From IMG/VR virus record IMGVR_UViG_3300050144_000055: a DNA stretch of 33,972 nt. One strand, written 5' to 3'. A program made the translations under genes and the position numbers. Below the pieces are notes generated by a model. It searched no databases and was not told where the DNA came from. It saw only the letters and a list, made by a program, of their open reading frames with translations. Shown piece after piece: positions 1 to 33,972 of this stretch. Positions within the stretch are counted from its first letter, which is position 1. Each line of letters starts with the position of its first letter. This stretch comes from a virus.

Positions 1-69
1 GCCGGCGAATTTGTCAGCCGAGGCTTCATCGCAAAACGTGAAAGTCAGTACCTCGTCATAGCAAAACAC
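1..69. repeat. Terminal direct repeat, copy 1 (identical to 33904..33972)
   Basis: The 69 nt gccggcgaatttgtcagccgagg...gtcatagcaaaacac occur at both window ends. The repeat sits inside a minus-strand ORF that reads through the junction without interruption. Confidence 0.95.
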
Positions 70-552
70 CGAAACCAGTCCCTCGACAGACTCCGGCACG
101 GCCTGCGCGGGGACGGGGCGGGCGTAGAGCGGCGTCCCGTGTTCCGGCAGTTGCGTAGCGTCCGGGTTGTAGCGCAGCCGGCCGCCAGTTGTCGTCATCT
201 GGACCATGCAGATCGGCTCTTGCCCCTCCAGCTCCGCCAGCCGTGCGCGCAGTTCGTCGCGCTCGTCAGCCGCTGCGTCGTGCAGATCCTTGAGCGTGAC
301 GCACTTGACCTCCAGATCGGCGATGCGCCACACCTGGTCGGCGGCGTGATGTTGGAGCGTCAGACGCTGGGCGTGCGCTTCGGCGAGATCGTGCACAGCC
401 GCAATCGCGCGGTCGCTGTCGTCGTTGCCGATCTGGGCGAGCAGCTTCACGGCGATCTGCAGGCCGGTCAGTTGTTCGTACTGTGCTCGCACTGCCTCGT
501 CATAGTCGGCGCGGGTGGCGAACATGCTCATGCTCAGTTGGTCGGTGCTCAT
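1..552 (-). CDS. Hypothetical early protein, N-terminal 184 codons (gene continues across the circular junction into 33853..33903)
   Basis: Manual reverse translation from ATG 552..550 gives MSTDQLSMSMFATRADYDEAVRAQYEQL... with no stop down to base 1. GGGAG lies upstream. The ATG overlaps the TGA of the upstream Rha gene (ATGA). The ORF track misses it because it runs off the window edge. Confidence 0.75.
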   Translation of the reverse strand, partial: MSTDQLSMSMFATRADYDEAVRAQYEQLTGLQIAVKLLAQIGNDDSDRAIAAVHDLAEAHAQRLTLQHHAADQVWRIADLEVKCVTLKDLHDAAADERDELRARLAELEGQEPICMVQMTTTGGRLRYNPDATQLPEHGTPLYARPVPAQAVPESVEGLVSVFCYDEVLTFTFCDEASADKFAG

Positions 553-1325
553 GCTTGTGCTCCCTCGATGCGCAGCAGGTGCGCCAGTTCGCCAAACTTC
601 GACTCATACCAGTGCGGCTGCGTCTCGCGCTGGTTTTTCGGGCTGCTCACGTTTTTCCCGTAGCGCAGGCCCGCATCGGTCAGGCTCCAGAAATACGCCA
701 CGCCCTTGGTGCTTGGGCGGGTCTTGGCTTCGAGGATGCCCAGATCCCGCAGCGCCACGTTGCACGCCGCTGCGCTGACCTTGTGCCCGTGACGCTTGAG
801 CAGCGTCGTCAGGGATGCAGTCGTCTCGCTGCTGCCAGCGGTCGATCCGGTCGGGGCATCGATGGCGTAGACGGGCGCCAGTGCCAGAAGATGAGGGGCG
901 GTGATCTCCAAAGCCTTGCGAGCCATTCCAAGCCGCGCCGATCCATCCAGCCGCAGCATGTTCGCCAGCGCGTCGGCCACTGCCACCGCCTCGATTGCGC
1001 CGCCCGCTTGGACTGCAATCGGTTGGGCGCGTCCGGTTTCAAGATCATGCCAGCGGTCAACCAGTCGCGCCGTGAACTCGGGCGACAGGCGAGCCATTGC
1101 GACATAGCTGTCGCGCTGGTTCAGCATGCACTCTTGATAGGTCTGACCGTTTGACGGCTCGATGTAGGGGGTCTCCTCAATCTGAGGACACACCCCGGCG
1201 TCCCGCAGGTCTCGGCAAACGCGCATCACATTGTCGTGGCGCTTGTCGGCGATCGTCGCCAGTTCTCGGCTGGACATCGTGCGCACGCCAATGGCACGCA
1301 GGGCGGTAGAATTCTTGTCAGCCAT
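549..1325 (-). CDS. Rha-family phage regulatory protein / antirepressor-like
   Basis: 258 aa. The N-terminus (SSRELATIADKRHDNVMRVCRDL) matches the Phage_pRha signature. AAGGA RBS upstream; TGA stop overlaps the next start. Confidence 0.8.
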   Translation of the reverse strand: MADKNSTALRAIGVRTMSSRELATIADKRHDNVMRVCRDLRDAGVCPQIEETPYIEPSNGQTYQECMLNQRDSYVAMARLSPEFTARLVDRWHDLETGRAQPIAVQAGGAIEAVAVADALANMLRLDGSARLGMARKALEITAPHLLALAPVYAIDAPTGSTAGSSETTASLTTLLKRHGHKVSAAACNVALRDLGILEAKTRPSTKGVAYFWSLTDAGLRYGKNVSSPKNQRETQPHWYESKFGELAHLLRIEGAQA

Positions 1326-1437
1326 CGCTGAGTCCTTTTCAGTTGGTGGTTAGGAGACCCGCAGTGCGTAAACACTTGCGGGGCTTCGTCATTGTGGCGC
1401 AGACCTTGTGCCGGCGCGATTGAAAATACCTATCACA

Positions 1438-2034
1438 TCAGGCCGGGTCGATCAGGAATTCGTCTTGCGTGCGGCCAGCCTCCAGCGCCTCAAACAGCCA
1501 GCGCGGTTTCAGGCCACGGCCCGACCAGGTCGAACCCGTCGAGGGATCGCGGTACTTCACGGGCACCTTGCCGGAACCCTTCGACTCAGACGAGACCGGG
1601 TGCGGGCGCTCGCTGCCTGCTGCACGGCCGTCGCCAAGACCGCGCAGCACCTCGGCGCACACAGCCTCTGCCTGTTGTTCGCTCAGGCCATCGGAAAACT
1701 CAGCCTCGGCGGCGACCTCCGGGACCATTGCGAGCACATCCTCCACATGGTCGGCAACAGCCGGCGCGTCCTCAAACAGATCCGGCACACGCGGGTCACG
1801 CGCTGGCGCAGCGGCAGCACCACGCGACAGCAGCGGCAGATGCGCCAGTGCGCGGGCCTCCCGCGGCGTGGACAGCCGGGCCGCCAGCGTGGGCTGCTGC
1901 TGGCTGGCAACCCACAGGGCCACGGCCTCGGCCTGGCTGATCGCCTCAGCTTGGGCGACAGGCTGGCCGTTGCTCTCGACGGTGTAGAGATTGGTCTGGC
2001 GCACTCGTGGCGCAGTGATCTTGGTCATGCTCAT
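1438..2034 (-). CDS. H-NS-family DNA-binding protein (C-terminal H-NS domain)
   Basis: 198 aa. The C-terminus KYRDPSTGSTWSGRGLKPRWLFEALEAGRTQDEFLI matches the H-NS/Bph3 DNA-binding motif (TW(T/S)G(Q/R)GRxPxW...DFLI). The start overlaps the upstream stop (ATGA). Confidence 0.8.
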   Translation of the reverse strand: MSMTKITAPRVRQTNLYTVESNGQPVAQAEAISQAEAVALWVASQQQPTLAARLSTPREARALAHLPLLSRGAAAAPARDPRVPDLFEDAPAVADHVEDVLAMVPEVAAEAEFSDGLSEQQAEAVCAEVLRGLGDGRAAGSERPHPVSSESKGSGKVPVKYRDPSTGSTWSGRGLKPRWLFEALEAGRTQDEFLIDPA

Positions 2035-2666
2035 TCCTCGTTGGGGCCGCGCAGTGCAGCCGTGTAGTTGTCGACGATCCGGCCGAGCGCCACCAGGTCG
2101 CGCACCAGTTCATCCAGCGCGTCCTCGTTGCGATGAATGCGGCGCACGGTCAGCGCCCGGCCGATGCTTTCCAGGTCAGGCGCCCACAGCACCAGGTCGC
2201 ACCACTGGCGGTTCAGCAGCCACATCTCGCCGTTGATCTGGTCGATGTAGTCGGCGCTGATCCCGTCCACGACACAGCGAAACAGCGTCTCGCTCGAAAC
2301 CATGGTTTTGATCTCGATCAGCCCGTCATCCCCCACCAAGCCATCAGGCGACACGCCGAACTTGTGGTCCTCGGTGCAGAAGAACCCGCACTGCGTCACC
2401 ATGCGGCCAGTCTCCAGCTCGTAGGAAGCCCGGGCCGCGTCCTCTTGCTCGCTGCCGATCCGCATGGCGAGGTTCTGCACGCTGGGCAGCGTCAGGCCGC
2501 CGCACCGCTCGCGCGCCGTGTCCATCGCGTAGCGGGTGGCTGCGGCGCTGGGCTTGCCGGTCTTCAGCTTCTCGCGGGCCAGCGCGAACCGGCTACCGGT
2601 TATGACACCGCGCCGGGACTGCAACCAGGCATCCGACCCCTGCGGGTCCGTGTACTCGATCAGCAT
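2031..2666 (-). CDS. YqaJ-like (lambda Exo-type) recombination exonuclease
   Basis: 211 aa. Contains GSDAWLQSRRGVITGSRFA and LIEIKT motifs typical of YqaJ viral recombinase exonucleases. Adjacent to RecT. Confidence 0.85.
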   Translation of the reverse strand: MLIEYTDPQGSDAWLQSRRGVITGSRFALAREKLKTGKPSAAATRYAMDTARERCGGLTLPSVQNLAMRIGSEQEDAARASYELETGRMVTQCGFFCTEDHKFGVSPDGLVGDDGLIEIKTMVSSETLFRCVVDGISADYIDQINGEMWLLNRQWCDLVLWAPDLESIGRALTVRRIHRNEDALDELVRDLVALGRIVDNYTAALRGPNEE

Positions 2667-2669
2667 GTT

Positions 2670-3521
2670 TCAGTCCCCCAGCGCGGCGCGGAACTCGTCC
2701 ACCGACTGTTCGACAGCGGCAGCAGCCACGGCGGGCGGGCTTGCTGCGTGGTCAGCATCCGCATCGGCAGCAGCCCGCTTCATTCCGTCGTGCAGCGGCG
2801 CCAGCAGCTTGCGGTCGTCACGCGACAGGCCGGCGAAGAACTCGCGGTAGGCATCCACGCCCAGCAGCGCGGCCTCTTCGGCTTTCACTCGCAGCGCATC
2901 CGGGCACTCGGCCGGCACGTCCACGCGCTTCAAATCGCCCATGTGGCGCGGTGCGGCCGGCGCCGGTGCGACATCCACCAGTTCGTTGGGTGTGTAGACC
3001 CCAAGGATCGCCCCCGGGCAGTACAGCCGCGCCCAGTTCTTGACCTGCAGGTAGCCCATCTGCTGCTTCGGGTTGACCTTCCACAGCGGGCTGTTCTTCG
3101 TCGTCACATCGGACGACTTCAGCCACTCGCCCCAGGTGGCTTCCTGCTCTCCGGCCAGCACGGCGCCGACACGGCAGGCCATCGCCGCGCCGTCGCCCTT
3201 GTACTCGTACCTGAAAGCCCCGCGGATAGCGCCAGACGACTGCACCACGGCGTTGACCAGTTGCGCCTCGTAGCCGAGCCGGCCGCTGACGACGTGCGTC
3301 TTCTGCGCCACCACGAACGGGTCCATGCCCCAGCGCACCGCCTGCATCGCCACGGCCATGCAGTCCGGGACATTGCCGTGCAGGTGCACAGGGACGGTCA
3401 CGCGGGACTCGGACATCAGCACAGCGAAGCGGTGCAGCGATTCCATCAGGGCCACGTTCGACAGCATCGAGCCAGTGGTCAGCGCCGTAGCGGCAGGTTG
3501 TTGCGTCATCAGTTCGTTCAT
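2670..3521 (-). CDS. recT: RecT-family single-strand annealing recombinase
   Basis: 283 aa. Contains AVRWGMDPF, the GYEAQLVNAVV block and SPLWKVNPKQQMGYLQVKNWARLYCPGAILGVY, which are characteristic of RecT. GGAG RBS. Confidence 0.85.
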   Translation of the reverse strand: MNELMTQQPAATALTTGSMLSNVALMESLHRFAVLMSESRVTVPVHLHGNVPDCMAVAMQAVRWGMDPFVVAQKTHVVSGRLGYEAQLVNAVVQSSGAIRGAFRYEYKGDGAAMACRVGAVLAGEQEATWGEWLKSSDVTTKNSPLWKVNPKQQMGYLQVKNWARLYCPGAILGVYTPNELVDVAPAPAAPRHMGDLKRVDVPAECPDALRVKAEEAALLGVDAYREFFAGLSRDDRKLLAPLHDGMKRAAADADADHAASPPAVAAAAVEQSVDEFRAALGD

Positions 3522-3533
3522 CTCGATCTCCGT

Positions 3534-4526
3534 TCAGTTCGTGGCGGCGGCGATGGCGGCGCGGGCTGCGTCAAACTCCGGCTTGCCGTTGTCGAAAATC
3601 AGCAGGTCTTCCAGCGCATCCAGCAGCAGCGGCGCGGCGCGGCGCACCTTCTCCAGCGCGGCATCCGCTGCCGCGCGCTCGGCGGCCAGTCGGTCGCGCT
3701 CGATCTGAGCCAGCCGCGCGGCCTCCGCTTCCGCGGCCTGCGCGGCGGCCAGACGCTCACGCTCCACGCGGGCAGCCTCTTCGGCGACGCGGCGCGCTTC
3801 GGCTTCGCGGGCCTGGCGCTCGGCCTCGGCCGCGGCGCGCGCTGCGGCCTGCTGCTGCTCGAATGCCGCGCGCTCGGCGGCCAGTCGGTCGCGCTCGATC
3901 TGAGCCAGCCGGTCGGCTTCGGCGCGCTCGGCGGCCAGCGTTTCGGCGGCGATGCGGCGGGCCTCGGCAATCTCGGCCTCGATGGCTCGGCGCTCTGCCG
4001 CTGCGCGCTCACGCTCGGCGGCGGCGGCTCGTTCCTGTTCTTCGCGCTGGCGGGCCAGTTCGGCGCGTTCTGCGGCGATGCGCTCTTCCTCGATGCGGCG
4101 GGCCTCGGCGGCGACGCGCTCGCGCTCGGCCAGCTCGGCGGCGGCGATGGCGGCCAGCCGCTCACGCTCGATGCGTGCCTTTTCCGCGCGCTCGGCTTCC
4201 TTGCGCGCCTCCTCGGCCTTGATCTGGTCGTCGATCGGGTCTTCCAGCGCGACCAGGCGGGCGGTGATCTCGGCGGCGCGGCTGTCGATGCTGCGGCCCA
4301 GGGCCAGCACCGGGGCCTTGGCGTCCTTGCGCACCTTCTCGACCTTGACTCGCGGCGTGCGGCAGGCGGCCCGTGCGGCGATTGCCTCGGTCATGCCCTT
4401 GGTCGTGGACACGGCAAAGGCGACGCCCTTGTATTTCTGCTCCAGGCCAGCCAGACCGGCTTCCACAGCGTCAAACTCGGCGAGCTGTGCGCCGATCAGG
4501 GTGATTGCATTCGTCGAATCGTTCAT
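3534..4526 (-). CDS. Coiled-coil E/R/A-rich early protein (function unknown)
   Basis: The ORF is open from 4586. The preferred start is ATG 4526 (MNDSTNAITL) behind GGAGATCGAG. There is a long ERAAAE-type heptad-like region with an internal duplicated segment RLAQIERDRLAAERAA. Confidence 0.7.
   Translation of the reverse strand: MNDSTNAITLIGAQLAEFDAVEAGLAGLEQKYKGVAFAVSTTKGMTEAIAARAACRTPRVKVEKVRKDAKAPVLALGRSIDSRAAEITARLVALEDPIDDQIKAEEARKEAERAEKARIERERLAAIAAAELAERERVAAEARRIEEERIAAERAELARQREEQERAAAAERERAAAERRAIEAEIAEARRIAAETLAAERAEADRLAQIERDRLAAERAAFEQQQAAARAAAEAERQAREAEARRVAEEAARVERERLAAAQAAEAEAARLAQIERDRLAAERAAADAALEKVRRAAPLLLDALEDLLIFDNGKPEFDAARAAIAAATN
3669..3911. repeat. 48-bp perfect direct repeat (3669..3716 and 3864..3911) inside the coiled-coil gene
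   Basis: tgccgcgcgctcggcggccagtcggtcgcgctcgatctgagccagccg occurs twice, 195 bp (65 codons) apart and in frame. Confidence 0.9.
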
Positions 4527-4681
4527 CTCGATCTCCATTCGGTTGATGTGGCGGCCCGTTTCGTGGGCCACTCGCCGCCTGCGCATTTCTTCGCCGGTGC
4601 GGTGCCGGCTTCGGATTCGCCCCCATGGGGCTGGCGACCGGCCGGGATGCGCTTGCCCCGCGCTGCCGCGCGCCCTCGATG

Positions 4682-4921
4682 TCAGGTGCAGGTGTCTCTG
4701 GTGCAGTCAACCTCAGCGGCTGCAGCTGGGGCCGGGTTGCAGGCAACGATGACCGTTGCTGCGCACAGTGCAACCACGACCCATGCGGCGACGGCGGACA
4801 GCAGGCCCCACGGTGAGCCTGATTGGTCATCGCTCTCCCGAGCAAACTCGATGGCCTGCACGCTGTCCTGCCAGTCGCCGTCGTGGTCGAACTGGATCCG
4901 GTCGGTGTCGTGGAGGCTCAC
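4682..4921 (-). CDS. Small membrane protein (hypothetical)
   Basis: 79 aa. ATGA overlap with the upstream gene. Contains one hydrophobic helix (WGLLSAVAAWVVVALCAATVIVA). Confidence 0.55.
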   Translation of the reverse strand: MSLHDTDRIQFDHDGDWQDSVQAIEFARESDDQSGSPWGLLSAVAAWVVVALCAATVIVACNPAPAAAAEVDCTRDTCT

Positions 4922-5277
4922 GATGCGCCCCTCATCAACGCATCTGCGCGCGCCAGTAGCAGCCGGGCATTGGTCATTTCCCGGCTGCTGCTGTCCTGCA
5001 GTTCGACCACCAGGCCACGCAGCGCGCCAACCAGCTCGGCGTTCATGGCGTGCACGTTGATCTCGGACGCGGGCGACGCGATCCCGCTGCGCTTCGCCAG
5101 TGCCGTGACCGCGCTCATGCGGATCCGGCGGTGGCCACCTGGGGTGCGGCCCGCGGCCAGGGTGCCGGCATCGACCCAGAGTTGCACGGTGCGCATGGAC
5201 ACGCCCAGGCGATGCGCCACCTCTCGGGTCGTCAGCAGCGGGTCGGTCAGGTCGGGCTTGAAATAGGGGTGGCTCAT
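4918..5277 (-). CDS. Excisionase/MerR-type helix-turn-helix DNA-binding protein
   Basis: LLTTREVAHRLGVSMRTVQLWVDAGTLAAGRTPGGHRRI matches the excisionase-family HTH_17 pattern. The preferred start is MSHPYF at 5277; the ORF is open from 5292. Confidence 0.7.
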   Translation of the reverse strand: MSHPYFKPDLTDPLLTTREVAHRLGVSMRTVQLWVDAGTLAAGRTPGGHRRIRMSAVTALAKRSGIASPASEINVHAMNAELVGALRGLVVELQDSSSREMTNARLLLARADALMRGAS

Positions 5278-5278
5278 G

Positions 5279-5491
5279 TCAGTGCCCCGCAAGGTTGATC
5301 AGCAGCCGGCGCAGCGCGGCAGTCCAGCGGCTGCGCGGCTTTGCTGGTGTGTAGCCATGGCCCGGGATGTGGGCCGTGCTGCCGTGGTAGCGCCACGGCT
5401 CTGCTGCTTCGTAGCCCAGCACGACGCCGTAGACGTCGGCGCGGCGGCCGGCTGCGTGGGCGTGGCGGGGGGTGTTCATCGTGGCCATCAC
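5279..5491 (-). CDS. Hypothetical early protein
   Basis: 70-aa ORF coupled at both ends (ATGATG overlap at 5486-5491; stop one base from the next start). Confidence 0.45.
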   Translation of the reverse strand: MMATMNTPRHAHAAGRRADVYGVVLGYEAAEPWRYHGSTAHIPGHGYTPAKPRSRWTAALRRLLINLAGH

Positions 5492-5841
5492 AGCGCTCCC
5501 GTCAGCATGAGGGCGCCGCGCATCGTGTGCGCCTGGCCCATGTCTGCCAGTTCTGCGGCGCGGTCCGCCAGCGCGTCGGCAGCATTGCGGGCGGCCTGCG
5601 CTTCTGCAGCAGTCATCACGAGGTCCTGCATGTGCCTGATGTAGCGCAGCTCAGCCGTCAGCGCAGCGCCGGACCAGATTCCGGCCACTGCGGCGGCGTG
5701 CAGCGCTTCCGCAATGTCCACCGTGCTACCCGGCACTGTCACGCGGTCCAGCACGATGTCCTGTGCCTCGTAGGGCTCGTCGATCGAGTAGCGCACATCG
5801 AGCGCTACACCGCCGAGCTTGATCGTCACCTCTCCGTCCAT
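5488..5841 (-). CDS. Hypothetical protein, first gene of the leftward early operon
   Basis: 117 aa. AAGGGGTGAGAG RBS. Lies directly downstream of the left operator cluster. Confidence 0.6.
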   Translation of the reverse strand: MDGEVTIKLGGVALDVRYSIDEPYEAQDIVLDRVTVPGSTVDIAEALHAAAVAGIWSGAALTAELRYIRHMQDLVMTAAEAQAARNAADALADRAAELADMGQAHTMRGALMLTGAL

Positions 5842-5900: not shown

Positions 5901-5960
5901 TGTAGCACTGCTACATGCTTTGCCGCAATAGCTGCGCTACATATTTTTAGCGATGCTACA
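5901..5960. promoter_or_regulatory. Left operator cluster: three TGTAGC-N3-GCTACA-type sites
   Basis: Sites are tgtagcactgctaca (5901-5915, perfect palindrome arms), aatagctgcgctaca (5927-5941) and tttagcgatgctaca (5946-5960). They lie between the repressor gene stop and the leftward operon. The third site overlaps the repressor stop codon. Confidence 0.7.
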
Positions 5961-6228
5961 GATCGTGCGCCTGAGCCGCAAGCCGCGGGCTGATCTCTTC
6001 CAGCGGAACGCCGAACCCGCGCGCATAGGCCAGCGCTGCCGGCAGGTTGATCGGTCGGCGCCCCTTGATGTGCTGGCTGAGCATCGATGCACCACCTGGC
6101 ACCCCGTGTTCACGGGCGAACGAAGCCTGGCTGATGCCGGAGAACCTCTCCGCCAGCCGCTGCGCCTCTTCTTCTTGTGACCAATTCCGCATAGGTGTAG
6201 CGATGCTATCAATTTGGTCGTGGAGCAT
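5956..6228 (-). CDS. Lambda cI N-terminal-domain-like repressor (HTH only, no S24 peptidase domain)
   Basis: WSQEEEAQRLAERFSGISQASFAREHGVPGGASMLSQHIKGRRPINLPAALAYARGFGVPLEEISPRLA parallels the lambda cI N-terminal domain (TQEQLEDARRL...LSQESVA...FSPSIA). The start is uncertain (ATG 6228 or ATG 6192). This is the only gene ending in TAG (5958..5956), with a TAA two codons later. Confidence 0.75.
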   Translation of the reverse strand: MLHDQIDSIATPMRNWSQEEEAQRLAERFSGISQASFAREHGVPGGASMLSQHIKGRRPINLPAALAYARGFGVPLEEISPRLAAQAHDL

Positions 6229-6267: not shown

Positions 6268-6588
6268 ATGAAACAAGACCACCTCATCACCCAAGCATGC
6301 CGAGCGGCCGGCGGCTCGTCCGCCCTGGCTCGCCTCGTCGGAGTGAGCCCGGCAATCGTCTACCAGTGGCGCACCGGGATTCGTCCTGTGCCTGCTGATC
6401 GGTGCGCATCGATCGAGATGGCGGCCAGCCAGTCCGTCATGCGGTGGGATCTCCGCCCCGCCGACTGGCATCTGATCTGGCCCGAACTCCGAGCCCGCTC
6501 CGATGCACCGCCGATCCCCGATTCATCGGCCGGCCCCGCCAGTACCCAAGCGCAGAACGCACGCAACCCGCAGGAGATCGCAGCGTGA
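6268..6588 (+). CDS. Cro/YdaS-like transcriptional regulator
   Basis: 106 aa. LARLVGVSPAIVYQWRTGIRPVPADRCASIEMAASQSVMRWDLRPADWHLIWPEL matches the YdaS/Cro family pattern. Divergent from the repressor. Confidence 0.75.
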   Translation: MKQDHLITQACRAAGGSSALARLVGVSPAIVYQWRTGIRPVPADRCASIEMAASQSVMRWDLRPADWHLIWPELRARSDAPPIPDSSAGPASTQAQNARNPQEIAA

Positions 6589-7115
6589 GCGCACTGACCA
6601 TCCTCAACACGCAGATCGCCGCCGACGACGCGGGCCGGTTCTGCTTGAACGACCTGCACCGCGCCGCCATCGCGTCCGGCAAGGTCAACGGTAAGACAAA
6701 GACCCCATCGGCATTCCTACGCAGCACCTCCGCCCGCGAACTCGTGGCCGAACTCCGGTCCGAGGTCGATGTGCAGAATCTGCAGAACGACCCGGTAAGG
6801 GCTGAGCGCGGCGGCCGGGTGTCCGGGCAGGCCGGCGGCGGCGGCTCGATGTGCGTCACCAACGCCGCCAAGGCGCTGCACCAGCGCCCGAAGGATCTCT
6901 TCGCCTGGCTGTCGGCGCACCGCTGGATCTACAAGCGCGCCGGCACGGCAGTGTGGCTGGGCTACCAGGACCGTATCCAGTCCGGGCTCGTCGAGCACAA
7001 GACCACCACGGTCGAGCGCAGCGATGGGACCGAGAAGGTGATCGAGCAGGTGCTGATCACTGCCAAGGGCCTGGACCGCCTCGCGAAGGCGTTCGCCGTC
7101 GAGGTGGCCGCATGA
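6585..7115 (+). CDS. KilA-N / ANT (KilAC) domain antirepressor
   Basis: GTG start in a GTGA overlap, CAGGAG RBS. The N-terminus RFCLNDLHRAA is KilA-N-like. The C-terminus RPKDLFAWLSAHRWIYKRAGTAVWLGYQDRIQSGLVEHKTTTVERSDGTEKVIEQVLITAKGL is KilAC/ANT-like. Confidence 0.8.
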   Translation: MSALTILNTQIAADDAGRFCLNDLHRAAIASGKVNGKTKTPSAFLRSTSARELVAELRSEVDVQNLQNDPVRAERGGRVSGQAGGGGSMCVTNAAKALHQRPKDLFAWLSAHRWIYKRAGTAVWLGYQDRIQSGLVEHKTTTVERSDGTEKVIEQVLITAKGLDRLAKAFAVEVAA

Positions 7116-7210
7116 GCGCCGCCACCTTCTACCGCATCCGCGAGCAGGCGCAGCTTGCAGCGTGGGAAGCGTTCTGCGGCGGCATCCCTATGACCTGGAT
7201 TGCGCCGTGA
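7112..7210 (+). CDS. Very small hypothetical protein (32 aa)
   Basis: ATGA overlap with the upstream gene; GAGGTGG RBS; the stop overlaps the next GTG start. Confidence 0.35.
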   Translation: MSAATFYRIREQAQLAAWEAFCGGIPMTWIAP

Positions 7211-7347
7211 TCCGCTACGCCATCACCCGCCTGCGCCTCGCGTACTACAGCCGCGCCCTGAGCGACATGGGCATCGCACACCCCGACGCCGGCGCCGTGC
7301 TGCTGCACATCAGCGCGCTGCGCGACCAGATCAGGAGCTACGCATGA
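7207..7347 (+). CDS. Small hypothetical protein (46 aa from GTG 7207; frame open from 7162)
   Basis: GTGA coupling to the preceding ORF; the stop overlaps the next ATG. Confidence 0.4.
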   Translation: MIRYAITRLRLAYYSRALSDMGIAHPDAGAVLLHISALRDQIRSYA

Positions 7348-7571
7348 CCCGCCAAAGCCTGAGCGTTTCACAGCTGCTGGGCCTGCCGGCCGGGCACCGC
7401 GTCACGCTGACCCGCCGGTACCTCATCGGCGCCCCGCTGGTCATCACGACCAACGCCAACCCGGACCACGCCAGCGCGCTGCTCGACCTGCGCCACCAGT
7501 TCAAGGCCGTCACCGGCCGCGAGTACCTGCCGCGCCGCGGCGACCTGCTGACCCACGAGGTGACCGCATGA
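7344..7571 (+). CDS. Hypothetical protein (75 aa)
   Basis: ATGA overlaps at both ends; CAGGAG RBS at 7332-7337. Confidence 0.55.
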   Translation: MTRQSLSVSQLLGLPAGHRVTLTRRYLIGAPLVITTNANPDHASALLDLRHQFKAVTGREYLPRRGDLLTHEVTA

Positions 7572-7891
7572 TCGCCCAGATCGACGCCGAGGCACTGCTC
7601 AACCGGTGGACCGGTCATCGCCGCGTCATCCGCGCCGCAGAGATGCAGCGCGCCACCGCGCCGCGCAAATCCACCCGTGGCCCGTACACCGCCAGCCTGT
7701 CCGGCCGGCTGATTGGCCCACTCCAGACGCCAAGGACCGTCAAACAGCTTGCGGACGGGCTCGGCAAGAACGAGGAGGCTGTTCGGTACGCGCTGCGGGG
7801 CATGGAGGCCGCCGGCCTTGTCAAGCGGGCGGCCCGGCTGAACGGCCGTGGGTCGCCGGACCTGTGGGTGGCGTGCGAGGTGGCGCCGTGA
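7568..7891 (+). CDS. Winged-helix DNA-binding protein (MarR-like wHTH)
   Basis: 107 aa. TVKQLADGLGKNEEAVRYALRGMEAAGLVKRA is typical of a wHTH recognition region. Confidence 0.55.
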   Translation: MIAQIDAEALLNRWTGHRRVIRAAEMQRATAPRKSTRGPYTASLSGRLIGPLQTPRTVKQLADGLGKNEEAVRYALRGMEAAGLVKRAARLNGRGSPDLWVACEVAP

Positions 7892-8461
7892 TCGCCGCCC
7901 TGTTTGTCCGCGCGGACTCGGTCTACAAGACGCTCCCGGGCGTGGATGCATGGGATGCTGAGCGTGACGCGCTGCGCTGGCCCGGCGGCGCTCCGGCGGT
8001 CTATCACCCGCCGTGCCGAGCATGGGGCGCCTTTTCCTGGCGAGCAAACCCGCGCGACGGCGAGCGCGAATGTGCGACATGGTCCGTGGAGCGCGTCCGC
8101 CAGCACGGCGGCGTAATCGAGCGCCCGGCGACCTCGCAGCTGTGGCCCGAAGCCGGCCTGCCTGAGCCCGGCGAGCGCGATGCATGGGGGGGGGTGGACG
8201 CTGCCGGTGGACCAGCACTGGTGGGGTCATCGCGCCAGCAAGCGGACGCGCCTGTACATCGTCGGGTGCGAGCCCGGAGACATCCCGGTCATGCCGATGG
8301 TGCTGGGCGAGCCTACGCACGTCATCGGCGACGTTGGCCGGGCATCGCTGGGCACCAAGCGCCCGGAGATCAGCAAGGCCGAGCGCGAGCGCACCCCGCC
8401 CGAGTTCGCTCACTGGCTCGTAGACCTGGCGAGCCGCTGCAAGGTGAGGGCTGAGGCATGA
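7888..8461 (+). CDS. Conserved-looking phage protein split by a frame change in a G9 tract (8186-8194)
   Basis: The N-terminal part (VIAALFVRADSVYKTLPGVDAWD...YHPPCRAWGAFS...GGVIERPATSQLW...ERDAWGG) is in the 7888 frame. The C-terminal part (GGGWTLPVDQHWWGHRASKRTRLYIVG...) is in the next frame and ends in an ATGA coupling at 8458. Removing one G joins them as ...DAWGGWTLPV.... Confidence 0.65.
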
Positions 8462-8667
8462 GCCAGTACCTCAACCCCGCCCACGCCAGCAGCGCCCGCA
8501 TGACCACCGGCGAGACCTACATCCCGCGCCCCGCCAGCACGGGCCTGTGCAACACGATGAGCTGCATCCGCTGCGGTGCGATCCGCCCGCTGTCGGCGCT
8601 GGTGGCTGATGCGCGGATCCGGAACCAGAAACGGTGCGCAGGCGGGTGCGCGAAAGGCTCGGCATGA
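8458..8667 (+). CDS. Small Cys-containing hypothetical protein
   Basis: 69 aa; ATGA overlaps at both ends; CxxC...CxxxC pattern. Confidence 0.5.
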   Translation: MSQYLNPAHASSARMTTGETYIPRPASTGLCNTMSCIRCGAIRPLSALVADARIRNQKRCAGGCAKGSA

Positions 8668-8969
8668 CCGCCCCGAACTTGAGCCCGTCGAGCGCGGGTT
8701 TCTGCTACCATTCCTCTCGCATCATCGTCGTAGCGGAGCCGTATGATGCACAGGCAGATCACGCAAGCCGTGGTGTGCATGTGCCCCCATTCAGTTGGGA
8801 ACGGGCCGCTACCCGAGCGCATGCACACCACGGCTTTGTCGTTTCCGATCGGCAGAGCCATTCCATCAACGTCCTTCGTAGCGGAGCAGGACAGATGACC
8901 AAGAACGCCACCGGCAGCAGCCGGAAGGGTGCGCGCACGCGCACATCCCAAGCGGGGAGGCCCGCATGA
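8664..8969 (+). CDS. Hypothetical protein overlapping a lower-GC structured region
   Basis: 101 aa from ATG 8664; ATGA overlaps at both ends. The interior carries a 16-bp inverted repeat and 12-bp direct repeats, so coding status is uncertain. Confidence 0.4.
   Translation: MTAPNLSPSSAGFCYHSSRIIVVAEPYDAQADHASRGVHVPPFSWERAATRAHAHHGFVVSDRQSHSINVLRSGAGQMTKNATGSSRKGARTRTSQAGRPA
8766..8835. repeat. 16-bp perfect inverted repeat (8766-8781 / 8820-8835) with a 38-nt spacer
   Basis: agccgtggtgtgcatg ... catgcacaccacggct. Flanked by direct repeats tcgtagcggagc at 8728-8739 and 8876-8887. Confidence 0.85.
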
Positions 8970-9610
8970 GCTTCCAAGCCATGACCTGGGCAGTCGAGCA
9001 GAAGGTGCCAGCGCTTCAGAAGCTGGTCCTGCTGATGCTCGCCAACCGCCTCAACCACGACACCGGGAAGTGCATCCCGAAGATCAAGACGCTGGCCGAC
9101 GAGTGCGGCATGTCGGAGACCTCTGTCAAGACGGCGATGAAGGGCCTTGCCGAGTCCGGGCTGATCACCATCGTCCCGCGGTTTCAGGAGTCGGTGCAAC
9201 TCCCGAATGCCTATGTGCTGCACACCGGGGTGGGTCGCAATGCGGCCCAGGGTGGGTCGCCAGACGCCCCCGGGGTGGGTCGCCAGACGCCTACAGAACC
9301 AGGAAGGTTGAACCAGGAAGGGAAACAGGGGTCGCCTGTCGGCTCCTCAACCCCATCCCGTCCTGAGGATGTGAGCGAACAAGTCTGGTCGGATTGGCTG
9401 GCACACCGGAAATCGAAGAAGGCCGCCGTCACTGAAACGGTGGTCGCCGCGGCTCGGCGCGAATCAGTCAAAGCCGGGATGACGCTCGACGAGTTCCTGA
9501 CCAAGTGGTGCCTGCGCGGGAGCCAAGGACTCGAAGCCGCATGGCTCAAGGACCGGGACGGCCGTTCATCGCAGTTCGGCGACAGCGACTGGTCCAAGGG
9601 GGCGGTATGA
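8966..9610 (+). CDS. Replication initiation protein (N-terminal HTH_36-like, C-terminal DnaT-like domain)
   Basis: 214 aa. The N-terminus (MTWAVEQKVPALQKLVLLMLANRLNHDTGKCIPKIKTLADECGMSETSVKTAMKGLAESGLI) is typical of phage replication HTH proteins. The C-terminus (VWSDWLAHRKSKKAAVTETVVAAARRESVKAGMTLDEFL) is DnaT-like. Confidence 0.7.
   Translation: MSFQAMTWAVEQKVPALQKLVLLMLANRLNHDTGKCIPKIKTLADECGMSETSVKTAMKGLAESGLITIVPRFQESVQLPNAYVLHTGVGRNAAQGGSPDAPGVGRQTPTEPGRLNQEGKQGSPVGSSTPSRPEDVSEQVWSDWLAHRKSKKAAVTETVVAAARRESVKAGMTLDEFLTKWCLRGSQGLEAAWLKDRDGRSSQFGDSDWSKGAV
9228..9291. repeat. Iteron-like direct repeats inside the initiator gene
   Basis: gggtgggtcgccagacgcc occurs at 9250-9268 and 9273-9291 (perfect, 23-bp period). 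A partial copy gggtgggtcgc lies at 9228-9238. Confidence 0.8.
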
Positions 9611-14958: not shown

Positions 14959-14960
14959 CC

Positions 14961-26017: not shown

Positions 26018-26021
26018 CACC

Positions 26022-28437: not shown

Positions 28438-30183
28438 ATGGCATCCATCCTCACTGAAGGCCGGCAGGCGTTCACCGATTAGGTCGGCGCCCCGCTGGTC
28501 GGCGGCAAGCTCTACACCTACGACGCCGGCACCAGCACGCCGCGCCCGACCTACGCCGACGCGGCCGGCACGGTGCCGAACACAAACCCGGTGGTGCTGG
28601 ACGCCCGCGGCGAAGCGGCGGTGTTCTGGTCCGGCGCGTACAAAGTGGTGCTCAAGACGGCGACCGATGCCACGGTCTGGACCGTGGACGGAGTGCAATC
28701 CACGGACGCGCAGGGCGCCGGGCAGTTTGCGGCGGATGCGCTGCGCACCGACTTGGCCAGCACTGCGGCCGGCAAGGGCGCCGCACTGGTGGGCCAAACA
28801 GACGGGGCGGCCTACCCTGCGGGGACGGTCGGCTGGTACATCAACAAGATCAAGCCGGTCGTGACCAACGGCGTGGACGACTACAGCCGGATCATGACCG
28901 AGCTGGCGAACACGGACGTGTGCTGGATCGATGGCGATCTGACCACCAGCCAGACCATCGTTGTGCCCGAATACAAGGGGATCTACGGCACGCACCGAGA
29001 CGGCACGACCCTGACCTACACCGGGGCCGGGGCTTGTGGGATCTACTGCGGTCAGGCCGGCTACGCGGTCCCATTGCGTGGATACGAGCTACGGGACTTT
29101 ACGCTCGCGGTGACGAACAAAAGCGTCGTGATCGACGGCATCGTGATGGAAAACGCCATCCATTTTCAGGTGCGCGACATCACGATCACCGGCCCGAAAA
29201 ACCCGAACTTGGTGGAGCCGCTGACCGGATCGGGCCTGCACATCAAGAACGGCTCGTTCATCGGCCGTGTGTCGCGCGTTGATTCGCGCCTTTGGGAGTA
29301 TGGGGTACATACTCAGACAATGATCACCGGGCAGGATTCATGGACCGCTGCCCTGGTGTTTGATGGCCAGGGCGAACTGATCAACAACCGCATCGGCATG
29401 ATGCTTGGGGACGATTCGGTCGCGCTCTATGATTTCAACGGGTGCACCGTTCGCGATTACACCGTCGAGGGCAACTACGAAGGCGGTATCCAAGTGGTCA
29501 GCGCGGTCTCTGCCACGCTGGACAACATCTACTGCGAGCATAACGGGTACTGGGATATCCGGCTGGGCAGCGACGGGATTGCTCCTGGCCCGATCAAAAC
29601 CCGGATCAACAACTGCAAGGCCGACTCCAACGACACGCAGTCCACGCCATACGGATCGCGCACGTATTTGTCGAAGCTGTGGATCCAGAAGGCGTCGTTT
29701 GCGAGCGCACGCGACAACGACTTCGCGGCAGGCTCGATCCCGTGCATCCGGATCGATCCCGGCAGTGACCGCGCCTACCTGGACAACAACCGGGTCAACA
29801 CGGCAAGCGCCATCAAGATTCTCGACAACGGCGTCGGCACGATCATCGACAACACTCCCGGGGTGCTGCAGTCCGTTATTTCGGTGCCGACTCTGCTCAA
29901 TAGTTGGGCCAACCTCGGCTCCGGGTATGAGCAGGCGGGGATCACGTCGCAGCGCCAGGCCAATGGGGCGACCGAGATCATGCTGAATGGCATGATCAGC
30001 GGCGGGGCCGCGGGCAGCACCATATTCACGCTACCGGCCGGCCAGCGGCCATCCGCGCGGATTGATTTTGCCGTAGGAGGAGGCGCTGCCAACAACGTCG
30101 CAGTATTTAGCACGGGGGACGTGATATGCACAGTCAAGGGGTCGTCGTCAATTTCGCTGCGCGGCGTCCGGTTCTTGGTTTGA
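28438..30183 (+). CDS. Tailspike / tail fibre read through TAG at 28480-28482
   Basis: MASILTEGRQAFTD-TAG-VGAPLVGGKLYTYDAGTSTPRPTYADAAGTVPNTNPVVLDARGEAAVFWSGAYKVVLK is the widespread conserved phage tail-fibre N-terminal motif, and the TAG falls inside it. The C-terminal two thirds have beta-helix-like repeats and lower GC. Confidence 0.8.
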
Positions 30184-30195
30184 CGGGGCGGATCA

Positions 30196-30453
30196 ATGAG
30201 TATGAGCACTGATTTCACTCACGTCAGCTGGGCGGGCCCGGTAGCTGCCTGGGCTGTCAACGCGCTCACATGGGCGCTGGGCGGGATGTCTCCTCTTGCG
30301 GCTCTAGGGGCGCTCGCGGCTCTCTGGTGGACCATCGAGCGAGCGCTGACCGAACGGGCCAAACGCCGAGCGATTTCTGATTTTGCCGCCACCCAGCCAG
30401 AGCATTTGCAGAGGACGCTATCGGCGATCAAGACCAAGCCAGGGGAGTTTTGA
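30196..30453 (+). CDS. Putative holin (two TM helices, charged C-terminus)
   Basis: 85 aa. TM segments are GPVAAWAVNALTWALGG and LAALGALAALWWTI, followed by ERAKRRA. First gene of the lysis cluster. Confidence 0.55.
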   Translation: MSMSTDFTHVSWAGPVAAWAVNALTWALGGMSPLAALGALAALWWTIERALTERAKRRAISDFAATQPEHLQRTLSAIKTKPGEF

Positions 30454-30454
30454 C

Positions 30455-30922
30455 ATGGGCGGACTTCTATCGTTCCTAGCTTCGACTGCCTTTCGATGGC
30501 TTTTTGGCTCGCTGCTGGAGGCGTGGACCAAGGGCCAGGACCACCGGCACGAGGTCGAGCTGCTGGGCCTGCAGCTGCAGCAGGACGCGCAGCGCCACCA
30601 GTGGCAGCAGGAGGCGATCCAGGCTCAGGCGGCGGCCGGCGTGCGGGTGATTGAGGCGCAATCCGTCCAGGCCCGGGAGCAGGCTGCGGACGCCGCGTTC
30701 CTGGCTGCCGTGAGCGGGGTCAATGCGGCATCCGAGCGCGCCGGCTGGGTCGGCGGGTGGAATGCAGCCATTCGCCCAGCGCTGGCCACCGTGGCGATCC
30801 TGCTGATCGCCGGCAGCGCCATCGCCCCGGATCGTGTCGTGCTGACCGGCGTGGTGCTCGAAGTTGTTTGCGCTGTGCTCGGGGTGTTCATCGGCGGCCG
30901 GATCGCATCCACGGGGCGCTGA
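30455..30922 (+). CDS. Membrane protein, GTA-holin-3TM-like
   Basis: 155 aa from ATG 30455. N-terminal TM, a Q-rich helix, then ASERAGWVGGWNAAIRPALATVAILLIAG and a further TM helix. Confidence 0.5.
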   Translation: MGGLLSFLASTAFRWLFGSLLEAWTKGQDHRHEVELLGLQLQQDAQRHQWQQEAIQAQAAAGVRVIEAQSVQAREQAADAAFLAAVSGVNAASERAGWVGGWNAAIRPALATVAILLIAGSAIAPDRVVLTGVVLEVVCAVLGVFIGGRIASTGR

Positions 30923-30959
30923 AAATTTCACAACCGCGCAATACGCGCAGAAGGCAACC

Positions 30960-31274
30960 ATGAACAGCACCGAACAAACCACCGAAGCGGCCATCGTCGC
31001 GGCAGGCGCCACAGCTCCGCGCATCACGCCGGCCGACATCGCTGCGAACATCACCCACACCGAGATCGTCAAGCACGTCACGCCGTCGGGCAAGGTGCTC
31101 CGCTGGGCGGTCCTCACGTGCCGCAATGGTTTCGCCGTCACCGGCAAGCCGTCCGCGTCCGTGTCGGTCGAAAACGACCGGGAGGAGATCGGCCGGCAGA
31201 TTGCCATCGACAACGCCCGTGACGAGATGTGGGCGCTCATGGGGTACGCTCTTCAGCAGCAGCTGCATGCCTGA
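30960..31274 (+). CDS. Gp49-like (N4 gp49 / Sf6 gp66 family) protein, paralogue 1
   Basis: 104 aa. RITPADIAANI...WAVLTCRNGFAVTGKPSASVSVENDREEIGRQIAIDNARDEMWALMGYAL matches the Phage_gp49_66 pattern. Confidence 0.7.
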   Translation: MNSTEQTTEAAIVAAGATAPRITPADIAANITHTEIVKHVTPSGKVLRWAVLTCRNGFAVTGKPSASVSVENDREEIGRQIAIDNARDEMWALMGYALQQQLHA

Positions 31275-31723
31275 TGACCCCGGCGCCGATCAAGCGCGCG
31301 CTGCCAGTCATCGCGCGGTTCGAGGGCCTGCGGCTGCGGCCGTACCTGTGTCCAGCGGGTGTTCCATCGATTGGGCTGGGATCGACCCGCTACCTCGACG
31401 GCAGGCCGGTCTGCCTGACTGATCCGCCGATCACCCGTGAGCACGCCTACGCGCTGGCCGTGGAGCAGCTTCGGCGCGAGTACCTGCCCGCAGTGCTGCG
31501 CCTGTGTCCGGGCATCGACAGCTACGACAGGCTGGCTGGTGTGCTGAGTTTCACCTACAACTGCGGGGTCGGTGCGCTCCAGGCGTCAAAGCTGCGGCGG
31601 CGGATCAACGCGGGCAACTGGCCCGGCGCCCAGGTAGAGATACGCAGATGGACCCATGGCGGTGGGCGTGAGCTGCGGGGGCTGGTCATCCGGCGAGCTG
31701 TTGAGGCTGCGATGTTGGCATAA
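31274..31723 (+). CDS. Endolysin, T4-lysozyme (GH24) family
   Basis: 149 aa. The segment ARFEGLRLRPYLCPAGVPSIGLGS has E-x8-C-x5-S spacing of the lysozyme catalytic motif. Also contains FTYNCGVGAL and GLVIRR blocks. Confidence 0.85.
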   Translation: MTPAPIKRALPVIARFEGLRLRPYLCPAGVPSIGLGSTRYLDGRPVCLTDPPITREHAYALAVEQLRREYLPAVLRLCPGIDSYDRLAGVLSFTYNCGVGALQASKLRRRINAGNWPGAQVEIRRWTHGGGRELRGLVIRRAVEAAMLA

Positions 31724-32921: not shown

Positions 32922-32957
32922 AAAAAGCCCCGCTCGGCATCCCGGCGGGGCTTTGTT
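32922..32957. terminator. Bidirectional rho-independent terminator between convergent operons
   Basis: aaaaAGCCCCGC-tcggcatcccg-GCGGGGCTttgtt: an 8-bp GC-rich stem (32926-32933 / 32945-32952) with an A-tract upstream and a T-tract downstream. Confidence 0.8.
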
Positions 32958-32967
32958 GCGTCAGGGG

Positions 32968-33402
32968 TCAGCGCATCTTGTAATCGCACCCCATCTTGTG
33001 CGGCCCGTTCTCCAGCGCGCCGCAGCATGCGTGCTCGGCCTGTCTTGCGGTCTTGCTCATCCGCTCAACCCGCATCCGCTCGCCGACAGCCGCTGCGCAC
33101 AGCACCACAGCCTCGCGCCATGCGCTTGTGTTTCCATCGCGCGCAACCCGGTGCCACTCTGCGCCAACAACCCGCGCTTGCACTGCCGTACCGCGCGAGT
33201 CCACGTACATCAGCAGTTTGTCTGCCAGCCGCGCGGCGTCCCCGTCGTCCAGGTGCGGGCGCCAGTGAATGCCGTACCCGGCCGCATTGACGCCGAGCAT
33301 TGCAACCAGTGCCCCGCGCGGCCCGACCGGCTCGAATGACGTGATCGTGTGTCCAGCCGCCAGCGCGGCCAGTTCGAGCTGTCCGCGTGTGATCTCAGCC
33401 AC
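32968..33402 (-). CDS. Hypothetical protein, last gene of the leftward operon
   Basis: The preferred start is GTG 33402 (VAEITRGQLELAAL...) six nt after GGAGG. The ORF is open from 33528. TGA stop just before the terminator. Confidence 0.55.
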   Translation of the reverse strand: MAEITRGQLELAALAAGHTITSFEPVGPRGALVAMLGVNAAGYGIHWRPHLDDGDAARLADKLLMYVDSRGTAVQARVVGAEWHRVARDGNTSAWREAVVLCAAAVGERMRVERMSKTARQAEHACCGALENGPHKMGCDYKMR

Positions 33403-33856
33403 GGCGCACCTCCAGTCCGTTCGCTGACAGCACGGCCGCTTGAACCAGCCGAGCCTCATCAAGCGCTGACGCGGCGTCAGGCCTCCCGGATTGCCACGAC
33501 AGGAACGAGAACCCTGCCGCCAGCTCATCGCCTGGCTGAATCTCGCTCATCGCCGCTGCAAGCTGCCAATCCTCCAGCAGCACCGCCTGGCGCTCGCCGT
33601 CCGGCAGAGGAAGATCCTCGATCGCCTGCGCCAATTCCTCTTCAGCCGGCTCCCCGGAGCTGTAATACAGCGGCTCCTTGCGGGCAAGCTTGGCAGCGGC
33701 ATCCCGCATCTGCTCGGCCCCCTCGCGCCGTGCATCCGCCAGCGCAGCGGCGATCATCTCGCTCAGCTCGTCGACAGATGCCTCGCACCCAACAATTGCG
33801 TCAATGATCTGCTGCACCGACAGCGGCGCCTCGTCATGTTTGTGCATCGTGCTCAT
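33395..33856 (-). CDS. Hypothetical acidic protein (153 aa)
   Basis: ATGA overlap with the junction-spanning gene; continuous ORF. Confidence 0.6.
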   Translation of the reverse strand: MSTMHKHDEAPLSVQQIIDAIVGCEASVDELSEMIAAALADARREGAEQMRDAAAKLARKEPLYYSSGEPAEEELAQAIEDLPLPDGERQAVLLEDWQLAAAMSEIQPGDELAAGFSFLSWQSGRPDAASALDEARLVQAAVLSANGLEVRRG

Positions 33857-33972
33857 GCCTTGTGCTCCGGTGCTGCGGCGGTGTCCACGCTCGGATCAAA
33901 CCTGCCGGCGAATTTGTCAGCCGAGGCTTCATCGCAAAACGTGAAAGTCAGTACCTCGTCATAGCAAAACAC
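33853..33972 (-). CDS. C-terminal end of the junction-spanning gene (unique part 33853..33903; the rest duplicates 1..69)
   Basis: The frame from 1..552 continues as ...DKFAG-RFDPSVDTAAAPEHKA-TGA (stop 33855..33853). Together this gives a 200-aa protein on the circular molecule. Confidence 0.7.
   Translation of the reverse strand: MFCYDEVLTFTFCDEASADKFAGRFDPSVDTAAAPEHKA
33904..33972. repeat. Terminal direct repeat, copy 2 (identical to 1..69)
   Basis: Exact 69/69 match to the first 69 bases. This indicates circular closure or an assembly overlap. Confidence 0.95.

Follow-up and report, generated by a model that had tools for sequence, protein, structure and literature searches.

Nine in-frame TAG codons in virion genes and a probable serine-charged amber-suppressor tRNA in a GC-rich phage genome

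In the recoded phages described by Borges et al. (2021; 10.1101/2021.08.26.457843), suppressor tRNAs accompany structural and lysis genes that are recoded and early and integrase genes that keep the standard code. TAG encodes glutamine in these low-GC genomes, the lysis genes are preferentially recoded, and recoded prophages are among the examples, together with a proposed code-based switch between lysis and lysogeny. Recoding restricted to late genes is, in other words, already described (Borges et al., 2021). Irregular tRNAs have also been found in phages and proteobacteria, and engineered versions carrying a CUA anticodon suppress amber codons (Mukai et al., 2017; PMC5389517). Here we analyze the IMG/VR virus record IMGVR_UViG_3300050144_000055, a stretch of 33,972 nt that we refer to, at its full length, as the window. 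Its late module opens with a 92-nt tRNA gene with anticodon CUA, detected by ARAGORN, and continues into virion genes that carry nine in-frame TAG codons. We consider it likely that this tRNA is a class II amber suppressor, probably charged with serine, that it reads the nine UAGs of the virion genes, and that the absence of TAG from terminase and lysis genes is due to chance; the early genes are UAG-free. An earlier reading of the same DNA (the original prediction) had already proposed a phage suppressor tRNA, which the tRNA(CUA) gene bears out, and its remark that code-based control of late genes had been proposed for gut phages agrees with the published work.

The window covers the whole of a circular, GC-rich phage genome. 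Its last 69 nt (33904–33972) are identical to its first 69 nt (1–69), which gives a circular assembly of 33,903 bp, and its GC content is 68% overall and 0.60 to 0.74 along the whole genome. Genes were called with a codon-usage caller that admitted TAG as a possible sense codon, and the gene map combines the 50 coding sequences (CDS) from this caller with Pfam and PHROG profile searches. In-frame TAGs number exactly nine; they lie between 15599 and 28480, within seven of the 14 virion genes and in no other CDS (Table 1). TAG alone interrupts genes, and TGA and TAA never do so. After this re-annotation, none of the approximately 28 early genes contains an in-frame TAG, and the genes encoding TerS, TerL, a GNAT protein, both holin candidates, the lysozyme, Rha, and Gp49 are likewise free of TAG. 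The original prediction had confined in-frame TAG to the interval from portal to tailspike, and our independent gene calls gave the same limits; a count of TAGs per gene over the 50 CDS likewise agreed with its list of TAG-free genes (early, replication, terminase, GNAT, holin, lysozyme, and Rha/Gp49). Its claim that genes for regulation and replication remain translatable under the host code also stood, as regulatory, replication, and recombination genes all read under the standard code.

Judged from the gene sequences, UAG is translated as a sense codon in this phage, and three kinds of evidence carry this conclusion. First, single PHROG profiles span the TAG positions of the portal, scaffold, coat, ejection, and tailspike genes (residue ranges in Table 1). 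Second, non-recoded homologues run through the TAG positions without interruption. The coat and portal genes of Manatee Spring phage MW202655, for example, are uninterrupted, and the MW202655 coat protein is 77% identical and has an asparagine at residue 40. In the closest relative, the viral contig IMGVR_UViG_3300033068_000092 (L002, L082, and L175 among the loci that we compared), the gene for the 789-aa internal or ejection-type protein is a single open reading frame (ORF) with GCC at the TAG site, and the N-terminal 54 residues of the protein are conserved. Third, purifying selection acts on both sides of the TAGs. Set against the closest relative, the stretches that precede the TAGs have a synonymous divergence (pS) of 0.29 and a nonsynonymous divergence (pN) of 0.035, which indicates that they are translated; in the 789-aa gene, the segment upstream of the TAG has a pS of 0.41 and a pN of 0.058. 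As several of the TAGs lie near N-termini, a start-site artefact had to be considered, and it was ruled out by the spanning PHROG profiles, the uninterrupted homologues, and the purifying selection upstream. In the scaffold gene there is, moreover, no start codon from the TAG to the conserved core, and the next start is at 17855.

As a control, the same permissive caller was applied to 11 non-recoded relatives, where it returned approximately 7 "internal TAGs" that scored as coding on both sides among approximately 49,000 codons; these are most likely neighboring genes fused in frame. The present genome has nine TAGs in 4,894 structural codons. These nine are biased toward the 5' ends of their genes, with a mean relative position of 0.24 and six of nine in the first 55 codons (permutation p approximately 0.002), and at each of the nine the next base is a purine (p about 0.02 to 0.04), as compared with a C after the single TAG that serves as a terminator, that of the repressor gene. 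Both tests, the one for 5' bias and the one for a following purine, were chosen post hoc. A purine after TAG favors suppression in the classical context effects on amber suppression, and the 5' bias and purine context together form the pattern expected if failed suppression is cheap and suppression is efficient. The codon that follows is ATC, GTC, or ATG at seven of the nine sense TAGs (TAG-RTN).

The minimum-free-energy (MFE) fold of tRNA(CUA) is that of a class II tRNA with 7/5 acceptor/T geometry, a 6-bp variable-arm stem in a 19-nt arm, an anticodon stem of 4 to 5 bp, and a D stem of 6 bp closed by a 3-nt loop. It has G1:C72, G2:C71, and A3:U70 pairs and a G73 discriminator, and the CCA end is encoded. 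Serine identity depends on the long variable arm and not on the anticodon, and G1:C72 and G2:C71 are conserved in bacterial tRNA-Ser (PMC9976931); tRNA(CUA) has the long variable arm, the G73, and both of these pairs. At the TAG columns, the non-recoded homologues have mostly S, then T, A, N, and G. Residue 10 of the ejection protein is serine in the closest relative (TCC) and in the homologues L004 and L008, and residues 48 and 101 of the 112-aa virion-module protein are A, S, T, or G in other homologues. A BLOSUM62 ranking over eight columns placed S first (12.1), followed by T (8.6), A (6.1), Q (-1.9), Leu (-11), Tyr (-15), and Trp (-21). At the four TAG sites that are not shared with the closest relative, this contig has GCC, TCG, TCC, and GCC, which are Ser or Ala codons. 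As the identity elements of the tRNA and the homologue columns agree, we infer serine as the best assignment for UAG.

UAG might instead be read as another residue: glutamine (as in genetic code 15), alanine, threonine, or a modified residue inserted by a route like that of tRNA-Sec or tRNA-Pyl. ARAGORN does label the tRNA "Pyl," and its best Rfam match is tRNA-Sec; residue 87 of the portal is more often A than S in distant homologues (A54, S41, and G13 among 120), and residue 26 of the scaffold is encoded by CAG (Gln) in the related locus L176. The "Pyl" label, however, reflects nothing but the anticodon. Both the tRNA-Pyl and the bacterial tRNA-Sec shapes are excluded by the long variable arm and the 7/5 geometry: tRNA-Pyl has a 3-nt variable loop, a 6-bp anticodon stem, and a pylS/pylBCD gene context, as compared with the 19-nt arm and 4- to 5-bp stem seen here, and bacterial tRNA-Sec has 8/5 geometry and a UCA anticodon, with the match to its Rfam family reaching only 37.2 bits against a gathering score of 47. 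The allo-tRNA shapes (8/4 or 9/3) are ruled out as well, because positions 8 and 81 (A·G) cannot lengthen the acceptor stem and the T stem has 5 bp. A3:U70 in place of G3:U70 counts against alanine. Code 15 does not describe this genome, in that glutamine scores -1.9 against 12.1 for serine, the columns hold mostly S, T, A, N, or G, and the tRNA is of class II. Pfam and PHROG scans of the queried ORFs gave no pyl or sel genes; for TerS, TerL, and the virion genes these scans comprised PHROGs alone. In our estimate, decoding as anything but serine is improbable.

Relatives place the tRNA and part of the TAGs in a common lineage. A tRNA scan of 60 loci (58 TerL-related loci and L082 among them) found tRNA(CUA) only in this genome and in two viral contigs, IMGVR_UViG_3300033068_000092 and IMGVR_UViG_3300020577_003752 (L003), and it was absent from the other 57 loci. 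The first of these contigs has 87% nucleotide identity to the present genome over 13089–28691 and is 99.9% (99.88%) identical to L003. A third lineage (L176 and L177; 88.6% identity) was recovered through its truncated portal calls. In L002 and L003, 91 of the 92 nt of the tRNA are identical to those here although the flanks diverge, and homology to these relatives (87 to 89%) starts approximately 10 nt upstream of the tRNA and runs on through the late genes. The tRNA is therefore inherited as part of the late module. A scan for tRNAs with any anticodon found only the same two viral contigs and no ancestor with a sense anticodon, and exact-match scans for the anticodon arm in genome contigs and metagenome contigs gave no match.

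TAG occurs in all three lineages at residue 87 of the portal and residue 40 of the coat. At residue 26 of the scaffold, it is shared with the lineage of the closest relative and L003 and replaced in L176 by the CAG mentioned above; at residue 48 of the 112-aa protein and residue 15 of the tailspike, it also occurs in the closest relative, and these two genes lie outside the coverage of L176/L177 and L003. Four TAGs are specific to the present genome, including residue 257 of the portal (GCC in relatives) and residue 101 of the 112-aa protein (TCG, Ser, in the closest relative). As two TAGs are common to three lineages and four are genome-specific, recoding is ancestral to the group, and individual sites continue to come and go. 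In L176, the public gene calls split the portal into 1408–1668 and 1720–3564 (86 + 614 aa) and the coat into 4402–4521 and 4522–5613 (39 + 363 aa); database proteins of the recoded lineage are truncated because such calls break at the TAGs.

These comparisons also bear on the idea that the genome is a defective element in which nonsense mutations or assembly errors account for the TAGs and the tRNA has nothing to do with them. One early gene here is indeed broken by a homopolymer frameshift, and the short contig L003 has, within the Walker B motif of TerL, a TAG that is evidently spurious. All nine interruptions are TAG, however, with no TGA or TAA; five of them recur in one contig of independent assembly and two in contigs from other samples; strong purifying selection acts on both sides; and the matching tRNA(CUA) occurs only in this lineage. 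The conservation of TAGs across assemblies, together with the purifying selection, effectively refutes the defective-element explanation, and we give it almost no credence. The TerL TAG of L003 was also rejected as a sign of a recoded terminase, as it is unreliable: three clustered mismatches fall in the Walker B motif. More exactly, three of the six mismatches between L003 and its relative lie within 17 nt (L003 1676–1695), where W-L-E-E-A-Q becomes TAG-L-A-E-A-K, and the cluster has the appearance of an assembly error at this spot or of a defective variant.

How far the distribution of TAGs departs from chance was assessed with a null model in which nine sites are placed at random among Ser codons. 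The probability that all nine fall in virion genes is 1.0e-3 and that all nine fall in the late operon is 7e-3, and the split between early and late genes is thus non-random. Given that the sites are in the late operon, the probability that all nine fall in virion genes is 0.145 (conditional hypergeometric; Fisher p = 0.22). At the structural-gene rate, 1.0 TAG would be expected in the terminase genes and 0.9 in the lysis genes; the terminase and lysis genes, GNAT included, amount to 1,178 codons with approximately 2.2 TAGs expected, and the probability of observing none is approximately 0.11. Because these genes are such small targets, their sparing is not distinguishable from chance, and we read the absence of TAG in terminase and lysis genes as a small-target effect and not as design. 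The permutation among Ser codons that had been suggested with the original prediction thus upholds the early/late split and not the sparing of terminase and lysis genes, and the sharper partition claimed there is not borne out.

Such a partition would be a deliberate one, with structural proteins gated by the tRNA and terminase and lysis genes held in the host code by selection. It fits the TAG-free state of TerS, TerL, GNAT, and four lysis-region genes here, and TerS, TerL, and GNAT are TAG-free in the closest relative too, as are the covered part of TerL and GNAT in L176. The probabilities just given tell against it, the relatives contribute no additional independent TAG gains, and the published recoded phages show the opposite, as their lysis genes are preferentially recoded (Borges et al., 2021). 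We therefore hold selection for so sharp a partition to be quite unlikely. A role for GNAT as part of a code switch was rejected, as GNAT also occurs in non-recoded relatives.

A different history could also produce the early/late split. In a mosaic genome, the tRNA and the packaging and virion block would have gathered TAGs together, and the early region would have been recombined in from phages with the standard code. This history is consistent with the onset of homology to the lineage of the closest relative and L003 just upstream of the tRNA, with the failure of the 735 nt upstream of the tRNA in L003 to align even though a RusA gene is present there too, and with the helicase relatives, which reach no more than 58% identity and belong to unrelated prophages. 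Four TAGs, however, postdate the split from the closest relative, and if the early genes were linked to the tRNA during that time, approximately 3.3 TAGs would be expected in them (probability of none approximately 0.04); no donor of the early region was found. We regard mosaic ancestry as a possible account, if on the whole an unlikely one.

Under the explanation that we favor, amber suppression by a probably serine-charged tRNA, the host seryl-tRNA synthetase (SerRS) would charge tRNA(CUA) with serine through its variable arm, G73, and first acceptor pairs, and at the nine UAGs of seven virion genes the charged tRNA would compete with host release factor 1 (RF1). Without the tRNA, only short N-terminal fragments would be made, and virion protein synthesis would depend on it: full-length portal, scaffold, coat, ejection proteins, and tailspike need suppression because the TAGs lie in frame within their genes. 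The early genes would be translated before the tRNA is made or without it, and any UAG arising there would be removed by selection. In mechanistic terms, this scheme implies that virion synthesis is gated on the tRNA. That the gate responds to accumulation of the tRNA, with a regulatory benefit, is a further step, which we suggest more cautiously, as is late expression of the tRNA; the partition would also arise passively if a gene could tolerate TAG only when translated in the presence of the tRNA.

Several observations weigh against this explanation. The tRNA is non-canonical, with a G7·A66 mismatch in addition to the 6-bp D stem, and it reaches the gathering score of no Rfam family (tRNA-Sec, the best, is the one cited above). 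At some of the TAG columns, Thr, Ala, or Asn is roughly as good a fit as Ser. With no more than nine codons, the statistics are modest; the early/late partition is seen in one genome only, and the related contigs add no further independent TAG events to the partition test. No RF1 antagonist, release factor 2 (RF2), or aminoacyl-tRNA synthetase (aaRS) appeared in any Pfam or PHROG result, and suppression would for this reason be partial, with a cost in the yield of coat and portal. A scan for promoters and terminators around tRNA(CUA) found neither. Just 5' of the tRNA lies an AT-rich island (13039–13094) in this 68% GC genome; the island is not kept in L003, and a consensus scan found no sigma-70-like promoter in it.

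TAG is also rare as a terminator. Among the 50 CDS, 43 end in TGA, six in TAA, and one in TAG. An earlier tally of 47, six, and one over 54 gene models was thus correct in making the repressor the sole gene that ends in TAG, and its totals shift in our recount. This stop, that of the CI-like repressor candidate (5956–5958, minus strand), has the context TAG-C and is followed by His-Arg-TAA (TAA at 5947–5949), and read-through at the repressor UAG would add only these two residues. TAG terminates 1/50 genes here as compared with 20/180 (11%) in high-GC relatives that lack the tRNA (binomial p approximately 0.02). The depletion is only mild, because TGA dominates in GC-rich phages anyway.

A mini-ORF between the tRNA and TerS contains two further in-frame TAGs (Table 1). 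It has a GGAGG Shine-Dalgarno sequence 5 nt before its ATG, and this sequence, the ATG, both TAGs, and the frame are kept in L002 (about 120–195) and in L003 despite 13% divergence. A search for RNA structure linking the mini-ORF to the TerS start found no fold that beat shuffled sequence and none that was conserved. The mini-ORF could couple TerS translation to the level of the suppressor, or it could be a coincidence. A more ambitious proposal combines several of these elements into an independent, early-stage reassignment of UAG to serine by a tRNA-Sec-like class II tRNA, with 5' UAGs selected as checkpoints and TerS coupled through the mini-ORF. We think this combination doubtful. If it were true, UAGs near 5' ends and before purines would be cheap translational checkpoints at which failure costs a short peptide, the mini-ORF would put the whole late module, and not the structural genes alone, under the code switch, and the capture of a stop codon would need no low GC content.

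Overall, the genome has a P22-like virion module and lambdoid early genes. The order of late features is tRNA, TerS, TerL, GNAT, portal, scaffold, coat, head-completion, ejection, tailspike, lysis region, and Rha with Gp49, in which phrog_156, phrog_8865, and phrog_283 mark the P22-type succession of portal, scaffold, and coat after TerS and TerL. For homologues of the P22-like module genes, PF16510 and PF11651 are on record, and the MW202655 genes are annotated as P22 coat and portal. The GNAT gene matched Pfam GNAT families, with Acetyltransf_1 alone above the curated cut-off. The CI-like repressor candidate is divergent to a Cro/YdaS-like gene at 6268–6588, and the minus-strand gene that starts at 552 crosses the circular junction and ends at 33853. 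The Pfam/PHROG map has no recognizable integrase, despite the CI-like and Cro-like genes, two Rha genes, ANT, and RecT/YqaJ.

Table 1. Positions, strands, and supporting matches of features in the window
Feature	Position	Strand	Content and support
Leftward early operon	1..5841, continuing across the circular junction into 32968-33856	(-)	Rha, H-NS-like, YqaJ exonuclease, RecT, HTH_17; TAG-free; Pfam
CI-like repressor candidate	5947..6228	(-)	weak matches to transcriptional-regulator families phrog_8 and phrog_4
Rightward early operon	6268..13038	(+)	Cro-like, KilA-N/ANT, HTH_36 replication protein, DnaB-like helicase, HNH-like, RusA; TAG-free; Pfam, PHROGs
tRNA(CUA)	13095..13186	(+)	ARAGORN, MFE fold
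Mini-ORF	13203..13283	(+)	two in-frame TAGs (13215, 13254); TGA end 18 nt before TerS start
TerS (13301-13696), TerL (13693-14958), GNAT (14946-15344)	13301..15344	(+)	phrog_309, phrog_3717, phrog_2; TAG-free
Portal (P22-like)	15341..17494	(+)	TAG 15599 (aa87), 16109 (aa257); phrog_156 spans residues 10-675, E = 3e-157
Scaffolding protein	17498..18325	(+)	TAG 17573 (aa26); phrog_8865 spans residues 6-267
Major capsid (P22-type coat)	18346..19557	(+)	TAG 18463 (aa40); phrog_283 spans residues 1-400
112-aa virion-module protein	23088..23426	(+)	TAG 23229 (aa48), 23388 (aa101)
DNA-ejection protein	23926..24591	(+)	TAG 23953 (aa10); phrog_598 spans residues 3-194
Internal/ejection-type protein, 789 aa	26022..28391	(+)	TAG 26184 (aa55)
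Tailspike or tail-fibre	28438..30183	(+)	TAG 28480 (aa15); phrog_26190 spans residues 10-98
Lysis region	30196..31723	(+)	two membrane-protein (holin) candidates, gp49-like, lysozyme; TAG-free; Pfam Phage_lysozyme, PHROGs

Three further features of the gene map deserve mention. An early gene of the phrog_12600 family (7888–8461, plus strand) is frameshifted in a run of nine Gs (8186–8194); with one G removed it encodes 191 aa that match profile positions 4–198 of 203 (E = 4e-68), and the frameshift is either a homopolymer assembly error or a real site of slippage or phase variation. Two paralogues of the Gp49/Sf6 gp66 family are encoded on the plus strand, one in the lysis region (30960–31274) and one after the second Rha gene (32368–32883), and they have nearly the same N-terminal stretch, IVAAGATAPRITPADIAANI. 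A tRNA-Gly(GCC) called by ARAGORN at 20132–20203 (plus strand) was rejected, as it lies inside a well-supported virion gene and lacks Rfam support; it is probably a false positive in GC-rich DNA.

No close cultured phage emerged for this genome, in which TerL is at most 51% identical to that of F116-like Pseudomonas phages, and a TerL-based search of metagenome contigs found nothing above 58% identity. The unrelated prophages that carry the helicase relatives are mostly from Burkholderiales. A betaproteobacterial host may loosely be inferred, and only loosely because the helicase search gave distant prophages alone.

Among described systems, the recoded gut phages (crAss-like, Lak, Garnet, and Topaz, among others; Borges et al., 2021; Yutin et al., 2021, PMC7886860; Peters et al., 2022, PMC9523058) have most in common with the genome analyzed here. 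They too have a matching suppressor tRNA; the recoded codon is limited to late and structural genes, and genes for early functions, replication, and lysogeny keep the standard code. As a terminator this codon is depleted, and close relatives use the standard code. The role proposed for their recoding is in timing or in control of lysis and lysogeny. They differ in that their genomes are low in GC and often large, TAG encodes Gln (or TGA encodes Trp), the proposed route to recoding is via low GC, many carry release factor or aaRS genes, and lysis genes are preferentially recoded. The present phage, by contrast, has 68% GC, a 34-kb genome, nine 5'-biased TAGs that most likely encode Ser, no accessory genes for a code change, and unrecoded lysis genes. 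The logic of the low-GC gut phages (a suppressor tRNA, recoded virion genes, and standard-code early genes) would thus recur here in a different setting. With few recoded sites, some shared and some lineage-specific, the genome may offer a snapshot of an early code change, and the system is small, comprising one tRNA and nine codons, and fully testable. There is also a practical consequence, as annotation under the standard code breaks up the genes that such phages have for portal, coat, scaffold, ejection proteins, and tailspike, and code 15 would mistranslate them.

The tRNA itself invites comparison with two kinds of suppressor. E. coli supD (serU) suppressors are also class II tRNAs with a CUA anticodon that can be charged by SerRS and compete with RF1, giving partial and context-dependent suppression. 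The supD tRNA is, however, a point mutant of a canonical host tRNA-Ser, whereas tRNA(CUA) is phage-encoded, has a mismatch at 7:66 and a non-canonical D arm, and has conserved sense codons as its targets in place of accidental nonsense mutations. The tRNA-Sec-like and allo-tRNAs (PMC5389517) share with it the long variable arm, the G73, and a D stem of extended length, likewise combine Ser identity with unusual anticodons, and differ from its 7/5 structure in having 8/4 or 9/3 acceptor/T geometry. Our literature searches found no natural system of the allo-tRNA type that serves conserved UAG sense codons in virion genes and no natural TAG-to-Ser phage code, which is absence of evidence only.

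The placement of the tRNA gene also has a parallel. In lambdoid phages, such as Shiga-toxin (Stx) phages, tRNA genes head the late operon in the same orientation, between the nin/RusA region and the late genes; these tRNAs read rare sense codons and not a stop codon. Against the background of these systems, what looks new in the genome described here is the combination of high GC content, serine as the probable residue, a non-canonical class II tRNA, few recoded codons, and the 5' bias of the TAGs.

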